Source: Perkinsus olseni (lineage: Eukaryota). Taken from it: DNA of 64,000 nucleotides. A program made the translations under genes and the position numbers. Location of the stretch: positions 1 through 64,000 of the forward strand of contig JABANN010000001.1 of assembly GCA_013115125.1 (NCBI GenBank). The letters run 5' to 3'. This document shows, piece after piece, positions 25,711 through 60,510 of the stretch. The notes beneath the pieces were generated by a model. It was given only the letters and a program-made list of their open reading frames with translations, was not told the origin of the DNA and did no database searches. Numbering within the stretch: position 1 is the stretch's first letter; each line of letters opens with the position of its first letter.

Positions 25711-27190
25711 GCAGCTGATCAACCCGATACCAACAGTTGTTTCTGAAACAAACTTATTCAACTATTGTGGCATCTGATCGAAGAAAGTGTTCGCTTTTGC
25801 CGCCGCTTTTAGTGTCAAGACGGATGTCAGTGATGACAGCCTCCTTGCATACACTCTTGACCATATCTTATATTGTCAATGCTGCTACACTGACCGCAGT
25901 CAAAGCTTCCATCTCGACGCCCGTGGCATCACGACAGGCGACCTCCGACGTTAGATGCACCCCTACGCCACCGGGAGCTCGTGCCAACTGCACATCAGCG
26001 AAATCCAACCTGATGGCACCTTAGTAGATATCGAGGATCGGTGATGTTACCTTACGTTATGACACAAGGGGACGAGATCAGCTGTCTTCTTGGCAGCCTG
26101 TACCCCGGCAACTTGAGCAGTCAGCGCTACCAGGCCTTTGGCCGACTCTCCCATTATGATGTCAGTAACTTCTCGCGAAATGTTCGTTATCTTGCATGAG
26201 GCCGTTGCCCTTCGGGGGTTGGGGGTTTTGGATGACACATCCACCATTCAGATGCCACTCGAAGACGCCCGGCTCAGGTGGGTAGGAGCAAGAGCTGAGG
26301 CCAGGCGGACCACCCCTCCTGACTGAAGCATTAATGGCGCGAAGGGGCTGAAAAAAACTAATTCGCCATTCGGAAAACGACATCGGCCGAGGAAAGAAAT
26401 ATCTTGCATCACACAGCTGAAGCACGTGCCCACAGCCCAGTCGGCGGCTACAAATTCGGGTGGTGCGAACAAGGAGAGAAGGTTCAAACTAAGTTGGTAA
26501 CCAGGAATTTCTCCGAGCGTCATGACTACAGAGGGCCGGTACGTTACCAGTAACGAGCACATGACTATTCCTGAGAGCGATGAGCTCCTCTGCAGAGTAT
26601 GCCGAGCCTCGGCAGCCGAGGGACAGGTCACCGAGGATGAGCACCGAGGATGAGCACATACGGTATGCTCACACCGTATGCTACTGCTGGTGATTATGAT
26701 CACAAGAGCTCTAGTGAGGATTGCTCAGGCTATATAGTGAACCCGTAGGACATCATTCACATCGGATGTAGTTCCTCGACGCTCATAGCCAACAGCCAAC
26801 AGTTCTCAGATAACGCCATGAACGCACACTCGGTGGGCCTGAAGAGCACCTGGGGGCTCACCGACCGAAGACCCTGTCACCACCACTAACCTCAAACTCG
26901 AAGCCCTAGTAGGTATGGAAAGCCGTAGCTTATGATGCGTGCAACTGCGTAAGGAATGTGGCAAATGGTCTGGCAGCGCAACTACGATGAATAGCGCGCG
27001 TCTAGCCACGCACGCTTCCCCATAAAAAATATTAAACGAATTAGCTAAGCTCAGACTGGCGTCTTGATAAATACGGCGGACTATCACAGCTAGGGCCATA
27101 AGCGTACCGTGCACTGACGGCGAAACGAAAGGAAAATTGGGAGCAGCAGCGGCTCTAACAAACTACGAGGTCCTCGGACCGGCCAACACC
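25711..27190. repeat. Segmental duplication, copy A (copy B ~30396-31575, offset ~4.7 kb)
   Basis: Near-identical over 25711-26016 vs 30396-30701, clearly diverged in moaC exon 1, and patchily alignable further on (e.g. ataagcgtaccgtgcactgacggc vs ataagcgcaccgtgcactgacggc). Confidence 0.85.
25754..26331 (-). pseudogene. moaC: moaC/MOCS1B (cyclic pyranopterin monophosphate synthase) copy 1, two nonsense codons
   Basis: Same two-exon structure as copy 2, but TGA replaces CGA (Arg before MVDV, 26248-26250) and TAA replaces TAC (Tyr of the conserved TIYDM, 25868-25870). Confidence 0.88.
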
Positions 27191-27330
27191 ATCTCAGTAG
27201 GAATCGTCCGGTTGTACAAAACCTGACTCCTGATTTGAAAATTCCGAGCTGAAAGAAAGATTATGCAACCATGAAGTACAGAGTTCGATGGCAACCCAAG
27301 GCCGGGCCTCAAGCTTATCATAGCGGGCCT

Positions 27331-27999
27331 TCACTTGGGAGTAGCCAAATACATGCAGACCTTATACCCCTGGACGTTGGCGCATGTGCCTCCGTTTATG
27401 CAATCCTAAAGACGGAGGCGTTTAAATAGAAATCACGCCATAGGCGAGCTGAGCTTACTCCATCTCCACTGCACCTCAGGAAGCAATAGTCGTAGGACTC
27501 CCCATCCATAGATACGGTGGCGCACCTTGAGGTGCCACCTGGGGGCGCAGGGCAGCTGACTCCATTACAGCCGTTGGAACATACTATGTAGCGGTTCGAA
27601 TTGTCATCAGTCTGACACAAAGCAGCTAACGGTGGTGATCTTCCATCATACTCACCGGATAATCCAAAAGATGGGCGCCTCCTACTCCGCAAGCACAGTC
27701 GGATAGTTGCCTGGTCGTTCTGGTGTATAAGCAGCCACCACTTGGCCTTAGATAGGACGAGCAACAGGGACCTAGAGCAACTTATATAGAACTGATAGGG
27801 CGAGTCTCTCTCAATCCTACGCACCTGCTGCCTGAATGGCGTTCAAGAGCTTCCAATGCACGCTCTGGTTCCTTACTCGGAAAACCAATTACATCGTGTG
27901 GAAGAAGTCGAATGACAGCTTACGTGGTCTTGGAGACTCTCAAATCCTCAGCGGCGTTGCAGAGGGCTACGAGATGGAGAACGCTCAGAAATGCCGTCA
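27331..27999 (-). CDS. Small secreted cysteine-rich protein, multi-exon
   Basis: Signal-peptide-like start MTAFLSVLHLVALCNA, then CSNGCNGVSCPAPPGGTSRC...YCFLRCSGDG|DCINGGTCANVQGYKVCMYLATPK*. Confidence 0.7.
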
Positions 28000-28227
28000 T
28001 CGTGGTCAAATGCTCCGATTTGAGTTTGGTTTGGGGGTGACACAGACGGCCGCAAATGAGCACAACTTAGCGCAGCTGATTGTCGAGAACACGTGCCTCT
28101 GACAGCACAATAGTTCATCATCAGAACAAGACACTCTTCTCGCCGAAAACGTAGGCCCTATCATCCCTTGGGCCCCCATGGCGATTCAGCTGTGGGTAGA
28201 GATATCTTTTGGGAATCACCAGGCCCA

Positions 28228-28348
28228 ATCTCTCAGTGGTGACTGACACGATAATATCGTGTCAGTCACCACTGAGAGATCTTTCAATCAGCATAATAGG
28301 ATACCTCTAGGATATCGTGACGATATCCTAGAGGTATCCTATTATGCT
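28228..28348. repeat. Two adjacent perfect palindromes (26-bp arms 28228-28280; 29-bp arms 28290-28348; 1-nt centres)
   Basis: atctctcagtggtgactgacacgata-a-tatcgtgtcagtcaccactgagagat and agcataataggatacctctaggatatcgt-g-acgatatcctagaggtatcctattatgct. Arms checked base by base. Confidence 0.97.
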
Positions 28349-28715: not shown

Positions 28716-30028
28716 ATGTATTCGACAAGAAGAAGACCTTGCCACACTTGTATCGACTCTCTAACGCTAGAAATTGAGGTGTTTAATAGAGCGGCGACGA
28801 GCTGCAGTCTTGCGGATGACCTTAAAACCAAGGTATGGAGTTACATGCCGACCCGCCACCTCCCCAACTCGCTCAAGGCTGCTGAAGTCACATCCGGTCT
28901 TCGAAGGTCTCATGGTTTCATCTGCGTACCTCGGGCGAAGCCGGGCCTATCTATCGAGTGCGCTGGTTGGCAAACCCTTGTTTTCATGAATAGCCAGCTC
29001 GCTAATTCGATCGAAGGCCTCCCGGGTGAGGGAGCTCATCTCATTGTGGGTTTGGAGGGCTCACCAGAGAATCCTAACATCGTACCCTATTTTCTTAATG
29101 ACTTTCGTATACAGCATTCGAGCTGTGTTGTTCGCGACGTGTTCTACTTCATCCCATGGGCACCCCCTCATACTCGCCAACTGGGGAGGTTCCACATCCT
29201 CACTCGTCAATTGCTATCACCCATTCGGTTGCCATGGGAAACTGCGGATCTCGCTGTTGCCGATGATACTCTCTTCGTTATCTCCGGTCGAGGTGACTAC
29301 AGCGTCTACATACTTTTGACTGAGTTGACTGGGGCATCGAGTGCTACCGGCAACGCCAAGCAAAGCGATACGGCGTACCAACTCTGTCGGGTGTCACCGC
29401 TCCCTATTGATCTGCGGGATACCATAGTGGGCGTATTGCCAGCTGGGCGAGAGTATCCCCAGGCTGGGGAAGCTCTACGAGCCTCGTGGGGTATATTTGG
29501 CAACCAAATGTCGAGCTTGCTGGACGAAGATGGCCGGCTGGTACTTATCCCAGAATTTCTAGATGCAACTGCCGTCGACGAGGTTCATCCACGAAAGCTT
29601 CTGTACAATGCCCGCGTTGTTGGTGGAGCTGAGCCCCTCTGCGTTCAGTCGTTGGGTGTTCTCTGACTCAAGTCCAAAAAACTCCTGCTTTGCAAGCCAG
29701 ATTCGTCCCGGCCACTGGTGGCACTATTTGTGTCGCTCTTCATCGTACTCACGCGCTCATATTGAAATTTACTGAAGGAGGCTCTGCCACTGAACTGTCC
29801 AGAGTACTCGGTCCTTCGTTCGCCGACTTCCCCTTCAAAATGTCCATCACTCGAGACTGGAGGATATCCATTCACATGCGTCCCGCCGGCCCCCTGGACT
29901 CACTGTATGATATTATTATCGAGCGCGATGAGGATGATATACTCCCACGTTGTGAGAGGGTCTCCTGCCTTCGACTGTGGGCGGTGCACGAAAGTCCTCA
30001 TTGTTGTTGTAGTAAACTTGTCTGTTGA
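28716..30028 (+). CDS. Lineage-specific hypothetical protein, intron-poor (316-aa ORF plus downstream ORF), weak F-box-like N-terminus
   Basis: Uninterrupted 951-nt ORF, unusual for this genome. LADDLKTKVWSYMP loosely resembles an F-box helix; the rest is beta-rich-looking sequence. Link to 29690-30028 is uncertain. Confidence 0.45.
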
Positions 30029-30438
30029 GACCGCTGATGCCATGAGTGTTACATGTTTTTGTCTAGTCGGCACATGATAGTTGTGTGGTAATCTCTAATC
30101 ATAGCCTAGGAAGGTTTAACAATCTGCGCTGGTTATGTCTGATTCCAGAAGGGGACTTCCTCCTAGGCAGAGAAATAGGTACAGCCACCATACACTGAGG
30201 ATGACGGAACTGAATGGTGTCCGCCTTGTACTTGAGGAGTTAATTTCATGTAATCATTATCATGATCGGAACAGAAGTAGAGCGAATCGATTGTTTTTCC
30301 CCATATTAAATTACTGATATCAAGCCATCATTTTCATATTATTAGATTTATTAGCTGTGGGTCGCAGTGAACATTCAAGCCAAACGCTTTATCAAGCAGC
30401 TGATTAACCCGATACCAACAGTTGTTTCTGAAACAAAC

Positions 30439-31047
30439 TTATTCAACTATTGTGGCATCTGATCGAAGAAAGTGTCCGCTTTTGCCGCCGCTTTTAGTGT
30501 CAAGACGGATGTCAGTGATGACAGCCTCCTTGCATACACTCTTGACCATATCGTATATTGTCAATGCTGCTACACTGACCGCAGTCAAAGCTTCCATCTC
30601 GACGCCCGTGGCATCACGACAGGCGACCTCCGACGTTAGATGCACCCCTACGCCACCGGGAGCTCGTGCCAACTGCACATCAGCGAAATCCAACCTGATG
30701 GGACACACCTTAGTAGATATCGAAGATCGATGATGTTACCGTATATTATGACACAAGGGGATGAGATCAGCAGCCTTCTTGGCAGCCTGCACACCGGCCA
30801 CTTGTGCGGTCAGCGCTACCGGGCCTTTGGTTGACTCTCCCATTATGATGTCGGTAACTTCCTGCGAAATATTTGTTATTTTGCATGAAGCTGTTGCCCT
30901 GCGGAGGTTGGGGGTTTTGGAGGACACATCCACCATTCGAATGCCACTCGAGGAAGCCCTGCTCAGGTGGGTAGGAGCGAGAGATGAGGCCAGGCGGGCC
31001 ACCCCTCCTGCCCGAAGCATCAAATGGCGGGGGAGGAACTGATGCAA
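30439..31047 (-). CDS. moaC: moaC/MOCS1B cyclic pyranopterin monophosphate synthase, intact copy, two exons, probable mitochondrial presequence
   Basis: PTHL...[10 protein letters not shown]...RRATA...[25 protein letters not shown]...[25 protein letters not shown]...KSGGKSG. The N-terminus is Arg/Leu/Ser-rich and lacks acidic residues. Confidence 0.95.
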
Positions 31048-31704
31048 GATGGGAACGAGGTTACTCGGAACTCGACCCCGCCAGAAAAAAATCTTTCATC
31101 GCTCGGCACAAGCACGTGGCGACTACCCTATCAGTAGTCGGACTCACAATCTCGCGCCGATAGTGCAACAAAAGCACTTTCGGTGGGATATGAAAAGCTA
31201 AAGACACGGGCACAAAGATCATGTTACCATCATTGACTTCCAACACGAAGCCTCTCCGGGATATAGAAAGCCTCGCGCTCGTGTAAATGCGTAAGGAGTA
31301 TGGGTACTGGTGCGACTGCGCAACTACATTGGATAGCGCGAGACTCGCGCTATCAGTCTGATGAGTCGCTAAACACGCGCCGCGAGTGTAGCGACTCACG
31401 CAAACTCAAACAATACTCAGCTCGGACTGGCGCTTTGGTTAAATGATCTTTATCAAATGGGATGGACAATGGCAGCCTGTGAAATAAGCGCACCGTGCAC
31501 TGACGGCTCCACGAATGACACAGTCGGAGCAGCCGAGGCTCCCAACAAACAACAAGGTCCTCGGGCAGGCCAAAACTATTTTGGGTCATATTGCGCGGGC
31601 ATTCGTGTTCCTCGGCACTGTGAGCACTTCAAGAGCATTTGAAATCTGAGTTTCGGGATACTATCCCGCCCTCCATTGTTCCGCTAGTCAATCATCTGAA
31701 CTAG

Positions 31705-32236
31705 TGGAGTGGAGAGTAGTGGAGACACGATGACACAATTTGCCATTGTGCCAAGAGCTCAATATGCCAGAACGCATAATAGGTTGCCAATAGGTTCGAG
31801 ACCGGTATCCGGAGCCGATCCCGGCAGTGATTGGGACAGTTGTTCCGTGGCGCCGAGCGCGACAGTAATACTTTGTGCAGCACGCGTGCACAAAGCGTTT
31901 CGTCTTCTAGCGTTTCGCTAGAAACCGTTTCATCATACTCACTAATCACTTATCATACTTGTACTTTCTTAAGTTTTCCTAATTACTATGTCCTCCAGTA
32001 ATTCTCAGTCTGCGTTGCGTTCGACTGGTGCCCAGACCCCAGTTGATCGTCTGAACATGACTCTTTCCGATATCATCCAAATGGATGGAGTGGAGAGTAG
32101 TGGAGACACGATGACACAATTTGCCATTGTGCCAAGAGCTCAATATGCCAGAACGCATAATAGGTTGCCAATAGGTTCGAGACCGGTATCCGGAGCCGAT
32201 CCCGGCAGTAATTCTCAGTCTGCGTTGCGTTCGACT
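31705..32236 (+). repeat. Interleaved direct repeats: 124 bp (31705-31828 = 32086-32209) and 31 bp (31996-32026 = 32206-32236)
   Basis: Exact copies at offsets 381 and 210. The second copies of the two repeats join through a shared CAGT. Confidence 0.92.
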
Positions 32237-32531
32237 AGTGGTAAGACGCACTTCTCGTAAAGTAAGGCTTCCAAATGTGGCCAACCATACTCACAGTTTT
32301 CCTCCAGCGGTGGGCGCACAAGCTGCCAGCTTATAAAACCTGTGGTCTCCGAGACGGGGTAAGGCACGGCAGTGCCGTGACGGCACCCAACTGGCGTCGC
32401 AAAGGTCGACAGGACCTCACGGCGGCAGCCACGGTAACGCGAAGGCAAACTGTGCTGTAGCCGACGGCGAATACCACAAATGGAAAACGCGGTTCGGCAG
32501 GCAGAAGTTGTCTCTCGAAGACCTCGATTGA
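31988..32531 (+). pseudogene. Disrupted Aly/REF/Chtop-like gene remnant (UAP56-binding-motif-like ends)
   Basis: N-terminal VDRLNMTLSDII resembles the N-UBM (DKMDMSLDDII). Downstream QKLSLEDLD* resembles the C-UBM (LSAEELDAQL). The interior is rearranged by duplications. Confidence 0.4.
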
Positions 32532-35500
32532 GAAAATGAGAGCGTCGGGAGGACGACGCTCGTGACGGACGGCCCGTCGAACCGAAACCGTAACCGAGCA
32601 CCAGACAGCTCGAGCCGGCACACAAGGCACTAGCTTGCTAGTGCGGGAGGCACAGCCGGGACACTAAGTGCCCTGATATGCGCTAAACATACCATAGCAC
32701 GTTGTGCCATTTGGGTGTACCGGGTGACATGAGCTGCCGGCTGGCTGCACATTGTCGCACATTTTTCCGAGGAGATGGGCCAACTGTGGGTCTCCTCTTC
32801 TTCTGAGGCGTCCTACATGATGAAGCTGAGTCCGGCGCTCCACGATTGCTCAGGAACGCCGGTCACAGCTTGTCGACAAAAGTGAAGAATCCCTTCCACA
32901 CGCTTCGGCATGAGCAACGGAACTCGATCGAAGTTAAGGAGGCACGGTAAGACGAATAGCCTGCATTCAGCCAAACGGATTCAGTTGGTCTACGGGGGTC
33001 CGATCAGCAATCTGATATATCATACAGGGTTGGCATCGCAAGGAACAACATGCGACTAGCATCAGAGCCTGTCATGCCAACCTCTGATGCAGAGGCCAAC
33101 GTAGAACGGTCCAACGGTCATTTCACGGTCCCCAGGCATGTACCTCCATAACGAGCTGAGCTCGTGGAGAACTGCACTAAATGGGGAACAGGTCCGATCA
33201 TCGGACCCGGAAGACTCATTACATCAAGTCGATTGCTGAGCCATGAAATGACCGTGGGAAAACACCACACCACAGCGCACAGGCTCGTGATGCATAGCAT
33301 GATGTGCGCTCAGAGTACTGCGCTCCACGGCCATAAGTACACAACAATGGAGGGAGACGGCGCTATGAAGAAGCCGCGATTAGAGATCAGAGAGAAGACA
33401 TTTCAGGATTAGCAGCATGAGCATGAGGCACCGGCCTGCCGACAGTCTACCAAATAGTATTCGTGCAGTAGTAATTGTATATACAACTACTACTGCACGA
33501 ATTCACATACGTATGTGAATTTCTGGTGCCCTCTCGTATGCTACAAGAGCTGGAAGGGCATACTCCCACAGTAAGACAGTCTAATAATGGTGATCGATCT
33601 CGACTCATCGAGCGATTCAACAAAAAGTAATACTCTCTTTGACACGCTGACGGACGTACTCGGAGTACGTCTGTCACGGACGGTCCGTGGAGAACGGTAC
33701 TCCCCGGTAGAACATGACATTTTGGTTTTACGATGGGCTAGGCGATGAGTACAATGTACCTCTACACCACAACAGACTAATGGCACTGCAATAGTATGAA
33801 AGGACTTCACAAGGCTGCTGGGAATGAGAATTTCTCATTGAGAAACCTTTCAAGTTGATGGTACGGCAGAGTTGGTGAAGTTCAAACACGTCCGTGAGAC
33901 CTCTGATGCTCGAGAATCTTCATCTTATTGATCGTGGAGAGGTCAAGGCAGCAGTACTCGCACTTATCCTCATCCTTCGCCTCGTCAGTGACCTCCGTCT
34001 CCATTACGTCGCTCGGAACATCTGATAACGAACCTAGATCCGAGCACATTGAAAAACTAACACCATAACCACCTCTATCTTATTGAGATATGCCGCTACA
34101 CATCCGCCGTCTGTGATCGCTGCTCTCCATCCTGTTCAATCGGCCTTCGAACCCGCAATCTAGTCATGGTGCTATGTACTAAAGTGGACTATGTACGTAG
34201 TTGCACGCATGCAGTGGGACACTGTTGAAGCCTGCACGATAGCCTTACGACGGTCTCATTCATTCGCCAGAATCCCACTGGAATGATAAATGGCATGGAA
34301 GCGGTATTCTCGAGCATGCACAGGTATACGCCACTTTACGATACTGATGGATAAACTCAACAAATATGCCACTTGGCACGAAATAACTGAATTAATACAA
34401 GCTGTCGCGCATGAGTCACTACAACTCAAGCAAATATCACTGCGCCGACAGAGGCCGCGCGCCACAAAACTTCATGGGGAACATGAGACATTCATGGCTC
34501 ATCATACTGATCCATGACTGGCCTCTTTCTCTCATGCCGAGGTATGTTGGGGACGAAGTCGTTCGGGGACGCGTGCATGTGCGGATGGGATAGATTGCGC
34601 TATACTTTCCTCCCTTCCTTCACTCCTCGGCGACGAGTCCTCGCGGATGAAGGCTATCCCTCTTTAGAGACCTGGGACCGCATCGAGTAGCCGATCGGGA
34701 CCACCGATTACAGTCATGCTGCTGGTCTATCATAAGTCCGTCGTGCCGCATGGGGACATTGGTGATCACAACACTGTCGCACAAGGGGCAGCGTGGCTCG
34801 CAAGATCGGGGACAGTCGACTCCAGCGGTGCTTCGTGACTCTTACATCTTTGTTGTTTTTCCACTCGCGTACGCCGTGTGGTTGGTGGTTTCGGTCGCAC
34901 AGGGGGTTTGTGCGAATGTCTATCCATTTGTAGCGTTTTACGTACGGTACGTGAGTTGATCGATGGTCGAATGGCCGGATAACTCAGAAATGAGTAAGGT
35001 TCCGGGGAGTTCTTTCCTTTTTGGTTTCATCAGAATGAGGTTTGCACTGTAGTGACAACTACCTTCATTACTGCTACGTACCCACCTTGCTCTTTGTGCG
35101 CCTTTGCTCGTACTACGTACGTTCGTCCCAGTGAACACGTGCGTTCCTCGTCATGCTATGGAACATACGTTCACCATAAAGCCAACAGCTAGATCAGTTT
35201 TCCCGAACTCCTCTCGAGTCCGGTCTTACCTCTCTCCAGTGGTGATTGGCTTAACCAAGAAAATGCTACAGTCGCCAGTTTTCTGACAATCTTTATCGTT
35301 ACCACCCCAGCTTCTCCATGGCTACATCTCATTCTCGGAGTGAAGCTCAGTCCAGAGGCTTTTCCTCCTCCCCCTCACTGGTAGGGTGAGACATATTGAA
35401 TGACAATGACCAGCATGACTGCATTTCAACTTCTTCGTTAGGTCCGATCCAGGGTGGCGTATATCATCTTCCACGTTACGCTTTTCCTGCTGGCTCTCAA

Positions 35501-42384: not shown

Positions 42385-43495
42385 GCTAGGAACGAACTAG
42401 CACTGCAATGATCTAATAAGGTTGAGGTACGCGGGAGAATTGACCCGCACGCAACGAGTTCTACTCAGCCTTGCTCTCGCAACCTTCGAACTCAACGACA
42501 TGAAAGAGGGGATGTACAGAAAACAGACTAGCCTCAAACATGATAAGCCGATGGCTCATGTTACCAGGTAGCAGTTACCTCTTTCCTCAGGCAATCGTCA
42601 GGCCCACGATTGCCTCGAGACTAAGTACTTACTCGACCCCCTAGTATTGTTCGTATACTTCTCGTCGTCGGTTCCCTACAGTGTGGAACCGCCTGTGGCT
42701 TTGAAAATGTCGACCACTGGAAAGGCGTATGATGGCAAATCCCTGATCAACACAGCAAGTAATTGCAAGCATATTGCCATAATTTCAATAAAAAACATAC
42801 GAACCCCCATTCGGGAGATCCACACAGCAACTCTTTCGAAGCAACTAGTTACTAGTTGTCCAACAAGAACTACACAACTTAACTTTCTCTATGTACTGAT
42901 ACCGTTCTACGCAGCGTTCTACCATGTACATCTCAGTTTCCCCATCGAAGACCACTTGAAGTCCTTTAAGGGAAGGAAGATCTTCCTCGGAACCGTACAG
43001 GAAACAACCTCAGCGGAGTTTTGGCCGTCGTGGGACATGCCAATACATCCGAGATAGAACAGCGCGTAAAACTCTCAGAATCACAGTCATAATCTGAATC
43101 ACAGAATGAATCCTCCTCTCCGCCAATATCGCGTCGCGACAGCGCGTATGGCTTCTCTGACGAAGCCCCTCGAATCGGGAATCGTCTCCGGCTTGTTACG
43201 CTCCAATGCTTTGCCACAAAACGGTTTAAAGCGCTCCTTGTCCTTCCGGAAGTACATCGCCGATATGCATTCCATCGGGTACCCTATCTCGCGGGCCGGG
43301 GATAGTGCAGGAGTCTACGACCAATGTACAGCCATTGGCTGTCAGCCAACTCTTAAAAACCTTAGTGGAGAACATCGCCTTTGCAAATGTTTCCTCCCTC
43401 AGCCACAGGGAGGAAACCTTCAGAGAGGCGGGGCCGAAGGGCAGAGGCATCTGAGGGCCTCAGCTCCTTCGGCCATTCACCCTTGAGTAGCTGAG

Positions 43496-43599: not shown

Positions 43600-43900
43600 G
43601 GGCCTAATAGTCCGGGGCCTGGCCCCGGACTGGTGGGGGGGGGGGGGGGTGGGGGGCGGGGGGGGGGGGGGAGCAGTTTGTGAGATGTGGGGACGGGGCG
43701 CGCCGGGGGGGGCGGGCGGGGGGGGGCAGGAGAGGGGGGTGGGTTGTTTGNNNNNNNNNNAATCAAAAAAATTTTTCCCCGCCTAACTGGTGCTCTACCA
43801 TTAAAATTTGTTTTTACACATATATCTTGGGCCAAATTCGCCGGGGGCGGGCCCCGGTAGTGGTGCTGCACAATTTTGGCCCAGCACGAGTCTCTTGAAC
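43600..43900. other. Assembly gap (N10 at 43751-43760) with low-quality G-rich flanks
   Basis: Ns flanked by long G homopolymers and noisy A/T/G/C runs typical of degraded read ends. Confidence 0.85.
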
Positions 43901-45047
43901 TTCTTTGAAGCAAGTTCAACCACGGGCCTCGAGCAGAGGCTTCAAACTCGACTCTACATTCTTGGTCTTGAAACTTGGCCCCAAATTAACAGGCAATAAG
44001 GGGGCTAGTCCTCGACCCTAAAATATACGCCCCTCAATATCATCGACCGCATCGACGCACCAGACCCCGTCCCGCACTCAAATAGCGCGTCCCAGCAGCC
44101 GGGACGGTACCAATTTGCTTTAGGAGTCGCTTTCGGAGGCATTATGCAAATGAGAACTTGCGAGAGCAACCGAGAGACACTTCCACGGAAACAAGCCGCC
44201 TCTGATATGATAGGAGAGCGTCACACGGTTCGTCGAAAAGGGTGCTGACGACGCCGGAAGGCGGCATGTCAACGGGGAAGGTAACCTTCCGAAGGTTTTT
44301 CTCTGAAATCTGAGGCGCCGGATCGATTCAATTGCAAAGGAAGCAGTTGGCTACACGTCGGACTCCCGGGTTCCTACCTCGGAATCCGAGGATACCGAAA
44401 CACGGTAGAGAGACGTAGCTAACCTTCTGAATAATCAGCTTGTCGTCTTCGAGCTTACCTGCCAACCCTCTCATACTGAGCAACGTCCCATTGATGCATG
44501 GCAGGCGAACTTACGAGCAAGCCGGACTAGTAATAGTATAACGGTTATACTCGGCGCGCCTCAGCAACAGTTATATTATAACTGTAATACCGAAAAGCCG
44601 CCAGGCACGCCGAGCCCGTGGTGAAATAAGTAGAGGTCACGACAACCTGGCAGCCAGTCGCCTCGCCACTAGCTGAGGCTGAGAAGGAAACGACGCCGAG
44701 GAAACTGGAGTGAAGGACTATCATAACAACTCAGTATGACATTTCCGACTAGTTCCAGTGAAGATTCTATACCCATCCAGAAACCATGCATGGGAACCAG
44801 CAGCCTAAGCGGCGGATAATCGTAAATCACTATCAGTGTATACGGCGGGATCTGTTATAATATGCCTGCGGCATTTTAGAACCCATTGAACTGTGTAACG
44901 CGACCATGCAGGTACCCGCTGACGTGATTACATATCTGCTATACTGGTATGCTATATCTGGTATGCTGATACTGATAACAGCTCACATGCGTGAACATGA
45001 CGGAATCCAAACCTCACTATCCCGAGGGTAACATGCGAAAGCATTCT

Positions 45048-58802: not shown

Positions 58803-60510
58803 TCATTCCTGATGGTAACAGATGTGACTGGGGGCAACACAAGCCTTCCGCGTGAGATGAAGAAACTCAATGCCTCCGCTTCTTCTGACGGCCATGAGCG
58901 CCGGGGACCTTCTGTTGGCCTGAAAGGCAAAGCGTCTTCGTCCACCATCGAGGATGGTACGTACCTTGCCGTTGAGGACGTTGTTGCTGCTGTGGAACCT
59001 GTGGCTGCTGTTGCGTCTGGGTCGGCCCTTGGGCGGACTCGGCCAGAGAGCCGCTAGACATGCTGGTCCGGAGGCCATGGGCCACGGGAGCCGGGAAGGC
59101 TGCCTGGCCGGGTGAGGGAGAACGAGAGTGATGAGTACCTGCGCTGTTACTTGGAGCAGTCCTATGGAAGGGCCGTACCTGGCGGGACAGGGCTGGTCAC
59201 CTGCATGACCCGTGGGGCGTTGTGATGCACCGAGCGATGGTACTGATGCAAATGGTACCTGTAAAGGAAGCACTACATTGGCTAGTAGAGGCCGCTGCCC
59301 CTCCCTACTGATGGAAATAGTGGACAGTCCCTGAGTGGCCTCCAGCGCCGTGATGACCTCCGCCTTCAGCAGCACCGGCACTCCCACAGGCCTTCTTACA
59401 GAACGCATCCAGCAGCTGCAGGAAGGGCGTGGCGACCGCCTTTTGAGGGGTGAACGCTCCTCCGCCCCGCTGGACAGGGGTGTTGGACCCTCCAGTGTAT
59501 TGCCGGGTATCTTCGGGGATATCAGGCAGGGGGATGACTCCACCAGGAAAGCTTCCCGGCGGCGGAGGAGGGGGTGAACCTGCACAGGATCTATTGAGTG
59601 CCTCGTGACTATTGAGGTTGTACCTTTCCTAGCCTGCGAGGGAGGCCCCTGAGAGCGAGGAGGGGGAGGCATGATAGACTTGGGAGCCTCGGCCGCCCTT
59701 GCTGCGGGAGCCTGGCTAGTCAGAGGCTGAGTCCGTTCTTGTCGTATGACTCCTCGACTGGTCTCCGTAGCGGCCGGTTGGCGTCCCGCAGCAGCCACCG
59801 TAGCCTTTGCTGAAGGGACAAACCCACTTATAACCGGGCGGACACGAGCATTGAACATTACGGGGATCGGTAACGCTGATCGCCGGTGACTTATCGGTGC
59901 CATTGAGTTGGGCTGGTGTCGGACTCGACGTCTCTTCCCGATGAGCAGCAGCAGCAGGATCGCTGCCGAGAGAGGAGGTCGACTTACGACGCACACGAGC
60001 ACCCCTGGCTGATGAGGTCTCCCGAGAGGCAGGACTGAAGCACCATACTGCTGGCCTGGGGGCTCCCTTCACGAGATTACCTATTCTCGTTGAAGGAGCT
60101 AGAGCGTCGGCGTAGGGGGGAGGATGGCAACGCTAAGGGTGCGGCAGTAAGACCATCGGGGAATAGCTGAACAGTAGAAGCGTTATGGTAAATGCCCAAC
60201 AAAGCGCGCTCTCGGTACTTGGTCGATATAGTCCTTGGGCAGGCGGCCCTCCGCTATCATCTGTGAGAGTGGCTTCCGCTTGGCCAGAAGGGCTTCCAAG
60301 GGTTTGGAGGTTCGTCGTACCTAGGAACCACCCTCGAGCCCACGAGAGGAGAGAGTATCTTTACGATGCTTATGCCCTGCATGATGTTGCTCTCGATAAG
60401 GTCTCGCTTGCTCCACTGCAAGGAGCGTTGGAAAAGGGGTTCGACTCTCGCTACGATGGACTCGAAGGAGCCTATGCTCGATCTGTCACACACGCCGTTG
60501 GGAGTCACTT
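58803..60510 (-). CDS. Hypothetical low-complexity (Pro/Ser/Arg-rich) protein; may be the 3' part of the upstream gene
   Basis: Long minus-strand open frames (58803-60002, 59716-60072) with a short Cys cluster QCSCPPGYKWVCPFSKGYGGCC. Exon structure not resolved. Confidence 0.35.

Follow-up and report, generated by a model that had tools for sequence, protein, structure and literature searches.

The chain of palindromes that lies upstream of one of two duplicated MoaC genes in Perkinsus olseni raises the question of how such structures came to stand beside one duplicate and not the other. The window, by which we mean the whole stretch of DNA analyzed (the first 64,000 nucleotides of contig JABANN010000001.1, forward strand), is eukaryotic, with short exons that encode ELMO/CED-12, citrate synthase, a DM10 domain, NMD3, PheRS and others, and it holds two tandem MoaC genes on the minus strand, 4.69 kb apart. 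The palindromes sit in non-coding DNA, 292 to 358 letters upstream of the trans-splice acceptor of the gene that we call MoaC-B. The two genes are laid out as follows.

30439-31040, minus strand: MoaC copy B, intact, recognized by Pfam MoaC matches and by spliced contigs of runs X8 and X12
31040-31039, minus strand: trans-splice acceptor AG of MoaC-B
31020, minus strand: ATG of MoaC-B, 18 letters past the trans-splice acceptor; exon 1 runs to 30738
30693-30737, minus strand: 45-letter intron of MoaC-B, followed by exon 2, which runs to the stop
30439-30441, minus strand: stop codon of MoaC-B
25711-26339, minus strand: MoaC copy A, 92.7% identical to B 30396-31029

MoaC-B is both intact and expressed: the spliced X8 and X12 contigs jump exactly 30693-30737 and show no differences from B. 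An RNA-like contig of X8 stops at 31040 with nine loose letters. Taken in minus-strand orientation and with the genomic AG at 31040-31039, these letters agree with the 3′ end of PmaSL1, the Perkinsus spliced leader given in PMC3101222. MoaC-A carries two in-frame stops (TGA in exon 1 and TAA in exon 2) at codons that encode Arg and Tyr in B, and is therefore a probable pseudogene. The identity of A to B is about 99% in the 3′ half and about 88% in exon 1; so high an identity in the 3′ half despite the stops suggests that the MoaC-A pseudogene has been partly homogenized by recent gene conversion. Upstream of copy A, a spliced minus-strand gene (26947-28030) has three short introns (27405-27457, 27612-27655 and 27770-27822). 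Its exons at 27250-28030, with a stop near 27333, encode a cysteine-rich protein of no Pfam family and are spanned by RNA-like contigs of X8 and X12 down to about 26947-26991; the 3′ untranslated end alone of this gene is duplicated upstream of copy B. The RNA-like contigs of the same two runs leave 31124-31421 uncovered, which contigs cannot turn into proof of absence. A minus-strand ORF that spans the palindromes (31061-31399) has no Pfam family and was not taken as a gene. Farther upstream of the palindromes is a direct repeat (31691-31832 and 32072-32213; 128-142 letters, 95-99% identity, 381 letters apart).

A preliminary description of this DNA had placed three palindromes at the locus, and all three, P1, P2 and P3, are found there. 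For P3 its ten perfect outer pairs hold, but the true extent is longer, with 18-letter arms and 37 letters in all. The parts of the chain are given below, numbered where needed by their position in an inferred 8-letter target; the "joined form" is that of the related run X9, which is described further on.

31332-31354: P1, 11-letter arms, 11/11 complementary, with a lone centre letter A at 31343
31332-31342: original left flank, the outer arm of P1, homologous to A 26990-27000
31343: the A at the centre of P1, complementary to target position 8 (T)
31344-31354: inverted copy (P nucleotides) of the left flank, 11/11 letters, absent from A and from the X9 joined form
31352-31362: P2, 5-letter arms with centre T at 31357
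31355-31361: 7-letter filler, templated by neither flank, which with its adjoining letters makes P2
31362-31398: P3, 37-letter odd palindrome, ungapped 18-letter arms, 16/18 complementary, centre C at 31380
31362-31379: inverted copy (P nucleotides) of the right flank, 16/18 letters, absent from A and from the X9 joined form
31380: the C at the centre of P3, complementary to target position 1 (G)
31381-31398: original right flank, the outer arm of P3, homologous to A 26995-27012; the X9 joined form resumes at 31381
26994-27001: the corresponding site in copy A, unscarred, where one 8-letter stretch homologous to the target lies within the 3′ untranslated end of the spliced minus-strand gene

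The 44 letters that B has in excess (31343-31386) consist of inverted copies of its own two flanks and the 7-letter filler, and the two mismatched letters of P3 are 31372 and 31375. Positions 1-7 of the target stand at 31336-31342, which are kept in the X9 joined form, and positions 2-8 at 31381-31387, with the six letters of 31337-31342 repeated at 31381-31386. When the two centre letters are complemented, the reconstructed left and right flanks overlap by exactly 8 letters; when they are taken as read, the flanks show no overlap. The number of letters gained over a single 8-letter site is 44, equal to the 44 skipped in X9. The proposal in the preliminary description that the new arms were copied from neighboring sequence is thus borne out by the inverted copies (11/11 letters on the left, 16/18 on the right), but its view that all were copied from the ancestral left arm is not, since the ancestral arm is the left one in P1 and the right one in P3. 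The filler possibly originated by snap-back synthesis during end joining; small palindromes also occur inside the fillers of two other sites, 33653-33703 and 44535-44585, and hint at such synthesis. A small mobile insertion of the MITE kind was considered and set aside, as the 44 letters are templated by unique local flanks and no other copy of them was found in the window.

The palindromes are real and far above chance. The window contains 13 palindromes with arms of at least 8 letters and a loop of 0 or 1 letter, whereas 30 dinucleotide shuffles gave 2.1 on average and 5 at most; for arms of at least 11 letters the figures are 5 in the window and 0.03 in 30 such shuffles. A lone centre letter is present in 11 of the 13 with arms of at least 8 (P = 0.011). 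As single-stranded DNA, 31328-31402 is predicted to fold at -26.3 kcal/mol (z -5.72), a stability that none of 200 shuffles reached, and the paralogous stretch 26984-27058 at -7.2 kcal/mol (z -0.43), with 60 of 200 shuffles as stable. P2, with its 5-letter arms, is not significant by itself. Strong predicted folding and a position about 300 bases upstream of the trans-splice site would suit a selected regulatory hairpin of MoaC-B, such as a protein binding site or a pre-mRNA element. We find this reading hardly credible, because neither paralog A nor the X9 allele has the hairpin, structures of this kind are scattered over the non-coding DNA of the window, and the window gave no match in an Rfam scan; a tRNA scan of it gave none either.

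Whether the palindromes were gained in B or lost from A can be judged by comparison with A and with other runs. The upstream parts of the two copies were aligned by local and semi-global methods, an alignment that the preliminary description had proposed as a check on its polarity; it had also called the flanks paralogous, and indeed A 26868-27192 can be aligned with B 31215-31579, the ungapped columns being about 78% identical. The site in A is single and unscarred. The stretch between the flanks of A, which that description called non-palindromic, is not unrelated to B, as A is collinear with B minus 44 letters: deletion of 31343-31386 from B raises the alignment score against A from 50 to 86 and lowers the gap columns from 36 to 18. 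X9, a related run under the same organism label whose common share of sampled words is only 0.40, has the orthologous B site without the 44 letters. It joins 31336 to 31381 in 2 contigs with a summed depth of 58.5 and 61 letters on the shorter side; the joint is known from contig assembly and not from raw reads, six letters could belong to either of its sides, and what lies between is entered as "not known." X9 carries an A-like copy as well, seen in a loose end at 31020 that continues as in A, which makes the A/B duplication older than the scar. The scarred form is present in an independent run, X4, in a contig that covers 30672-31369 with 0 differences and a second contig that begins at 31391, with none of the pieces listed crossing 31370-31390.

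One could also suppose that the palindromes are ancestral and that copy A and the X9 allele each lost them. Palindromes tend to be deleted, and the 6 letters common to 31337-31342 and 31381-31386 could have mediated a precise 44-letter deletion as direct repeats. Two independent and identical deletions would be required, however, and the structure must anyway have arisen from an A-like site. The arms, moreover, differ at 2 of 29 pairs, against 6.1 expected if they were older than the A/B split (P = 0.04), and are thus too clean to predate it. We consider ancestral loss very improbable. The unscarred site in A, the joined form and the A-like copy in X9, and the clean arms together support a gain of the palindromes in B that followed the A/B duplication and took place in the lineage of this assembly. 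This is the polarity that the preliminary description had proposed, with the proviso that an outgroup retaining the palindromes would speak for decay in A; the one related form, X9, does not retain them.

A mechanism for the gain is indicated by the other palindromes of the window. We defined a stereotyped scar as target letters 1 to n-1, the inverted target, and target letters 2 to n, and counted this form window-wide. For n = 8 there are 5 matches, against 0.00024 expected by chance; for n = 6, 7 and 9-14 there are 0 in the window, and for n = 5 there is 1, with 0.98 expected by chance. The corresponding even-centred form has 0 matches in the window for n = 5-12. All five perfect 22-letter scars lie outside recognized coding exons. 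They are listed here with the two other long scars that follow the same rule.

26600-26621: stereotyped scar, 22 letters (target 1-7, inverted 8-letter target, target 2-8)
32365-32386: stereotyped scar, the same form
33824-33845: stereotyped scar, the same form
43328-43349: stereotyped scar, the same form
44276-44297: stereotyped scar, the same form
28228-28348: largest scar, 26- and 29-letter arms with centres A (28254) and G (28319), 9-letter filler, 8-letter overlap
33653-33703: third long scar, with left, middle and right palindromes and an 8-letter target overlap

The perfect palindromes of the largest scar measure 53 and 59 letters. Three of four long double-palindrome sites (31332, 28228 and 33653) obey both the 8-letter overlap and the rule of complemented centres; the exception, 44535-44585, has a 6-letter common core and centre letters that do not fit the rule. 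The window has 42 odd palindromes with arms of at least 6 letters. The complement rule finds a partner 7-mer for 17 of them, one of which (42850) is a self-overlap artefact; three control choices of base find 1, 3 and 3.

Several observations concern neighboring or similar sites. At 28228-28348, a contig of X9 passes from 28227 through four other letters to 28276, so that most of the left palindrome, including the original flank arm, is gone and the filler and right palindrome are kept; this form may be a secondary deletion of an unstable palindrome. At 31619, X9 has 14 extra letters that include a small odd palindrome, and 14 is the gain of a stereotyped 8-letter scar. The two forms may be reciprocal, with a scar in X9 and none here; fitted by hand, the letters agreed only inexactly with the stereotyped form. 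Two abutting even-centred palindromes at 33459-33521, with 22-letter arms (one mismatch) and 11-letter arms, overlap by 3 letters, and their flanks have only 4 letters in common, which places them outside the 8-letter rule. A G-rich run at 43632-43760 follows a palindrome at 43609-43631, and the 10 N from 43751 within it are probably an assembly gap. Beside the largest scar, the ORF at 28716-29663 matched no Pfam family and, in a protein atlas, scored below 0.9 with unrelated bacterial and viral clusters. Two short stretches, 29250-29308 and 29713-29733, are matched by X4 and X9 contigs from other parts of the genome that skip the 404 letters between, so part of this ORF belongs to a dispersed repeat or gene family.

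The preliminary description had attributed the hairpins to a fold-back mechanism, which we take as spontaneous replication fold-back or template switching with no transposon, in which the nascent strand briefly copies the opposite strand and then returns. Template-switch mutations can create hairpins in one step, as perfect inverted repeats of adjoining sequence, and the inserted arms here are likewise inverted copies of adjoining sequence; the 22-letter form can formally be written as one switch and return, and the window contains no transposon that we could find. Such switching would leave an inverted copy of variable length and no target duplication, whereas the scars described here have a fixed 8-letter unit, a duplicated target and a complemented centre letter. 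Fold-back gives no reason for a fixed length, yet only n = 8 is seen (5 matches against 0 for 6, 7 and 9-14), and the three long scars, with arms of 9-29 letters, all have the exact 8-letter overlap and complemented centres. Two facing palindromes, one per flank, around a duplicated target would also need at least 2 coordinated switches. We therefore regard replication fold-back as quite improbable; the 8-letter target duplication and the complemented centres point instead to hairpin-capped excision ends.

A fixed 8-letter unit with a one-base offset is what would be expected if a target of 8 bp had been duplicated and the nick had fallen one base outside an element. We propose, with a probability of roughly three in four, that the palindrome chain is the donor-site scar of a cut-and-paste transposon that made 8-bp target duplications and left hairpin-capped flanks, most likely one of the hAT superfamily. 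The element would first have inserted into the 8-letter site GCGCGAGT upstream of MoaC-B and duplicated it. At excision, each flank would have been nicked one base outside the element and sealed as a hairpin. The hairpins would then have been opened far from their tips, at a distance of 11 letters on the left side and 18 on the right side, so that each flank was extended by its own inverted copy, with the complement of the base formerly in contact with the element at the centre. The two extended ends would finally have been joined through the 7 filler letters. A simple excision model of this kind does not account for P2, the filler of 7 letters or the two mismatched letters of P3.

The locus has four features expected of a hAT footprint: 8-bp target copies, P nucleotides from the flanks, complemented centres and an unscarred allele. 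From these we infer that an element was once present, the family to which it belonged, and the enzymes responsible for hairpin opening and joining. No occupied allele of the site was seen among the runs compared, and no transposase domain was found in the ORF translations of the window (12, 62 and 80 ORFs scanned, some overlapping). The lone candidate for a resident element, at 59448-59572, has an 8-letter duplication and terminal inverted repeats and was rejected as a low-complexity coding stretch. The hAT superfamily prefers targets whose second letter is T and whose seventh is A, a tendency and not a strict definition. The preference is weak in the inferred targets: read by eye, T stands at position 2 in 1 of 8 and A at position 7 in 4 of 8. 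Judged by titles and abstracts, literature searches gave no report of hAT elements or excision footprints in Perkinsus.

The closest known counterparts are the excision footprints of Ac/Ds, a hAT system, which the available parts of PMC5873905 and PMC1978519 place in maize, Arabidopsis, budding yeast and Candida albicans. As the former describes them, these footprints contain palindromes centred on the complement of the base adjoining the element. As in our scars, the 8-bp target duplication is retained except for the base that adjoins the element, P nucleotides are inverted from the flanks (PMC5873905), and joining proceeds at times with microhomology and at times with letters outside the hairpin model. 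Unlike Ac/Ds, the arms here reach 11 and 18 letters, and 26 and 29 at 28228-28348, whereas the longest named in the discussion of PMC5873905 are 20 in yeast and 3 in Candida. The host is also different, an alveolate parasite for which the literature searches gave no such footprint, and no element or transposase was found in the window. Off-tip opening of a hairpin-capped end likewise yields the short inverted repeats known as P nucleotides at V(D)J joints, where the hairpins are made by RAG (PMC1978519 and PMC5499845, in the parts available). Those joints differ in that they have no target duplication and usually few P letters, and the locus described here is not an immune one.

The same kind of hairpin-repair scar could in principle have been left by a different enzyme, either that of a Mutator-like element, which makes duplications of 8-9 bp, or a domesticated nuclease, hAT-like or RAG-like, that acted with no mobile element. 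According to the available text of PMC5499845, hAT, Transib, RAG and Mutator-like enzymes all make hairpins on flanking DNA, and Muta1 in particular does so with duplications of 8 or 9 bp, while Kat1, a domesticated hAT transposase of yeast, makes hairpin-capped breaks (PMC4763223, in part). A hAT gene, as noted, was not found in the window. Against Muta1 is its excision, which is mostly precise (more than 90%), and its hairpin product of 43 + 43 nt, with no sign of a one-base offset in the available part of PMC5499845; 9-letter scars and even-centred scars (n = 5-12), which a Mutator-like source would lead one to look for, number 0 in the window. A nuclease that never inserted anything, for its part, would not duplicate 8 letters. 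We judge a different enzyme to be unlikely. Dada elements, which occur in Perkinsus, were rejected as a source, as neither their 6-7 bp duplications nor their tRNA-gene targets, as described in the part of PMC3706591 available, fit the scars.

The chain upstream of MoaC-B is most likely a known kind of scar in a new host, and it is notable for its length and density. This reading accounts through a known process for dense perfect palindromes in non-coding DNA and cautions against taking such hairpins for regulatory elements. Tentatively, and with more doubt than assurance, we suggest that the genome of this parasite may harbor a very active family of elements, or a domesticated enzyme, that makes flank hairpins and 8-bp duplications, with repair by inverted copies of up to 29 letters and strain-variable scars about once per 6-7 kb; excision, and not replication error, would then be the main and ongoing source of new perfect hairpins in non-coding DNA. 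Scars vary by strain, the one at 31332-31398 being present here and in X4 and not in X9, and X9 having at 31619 a 14-letter insertion that the window lacks. Such differences give them potential as strain markers and point to recent cut-and-paste transposition in this shellfish parasite. The very long inverted copies suggest that, in a Perkinsus-like parasite, hairpins are opened far from their tips, which bears on how its DNA is repaired.
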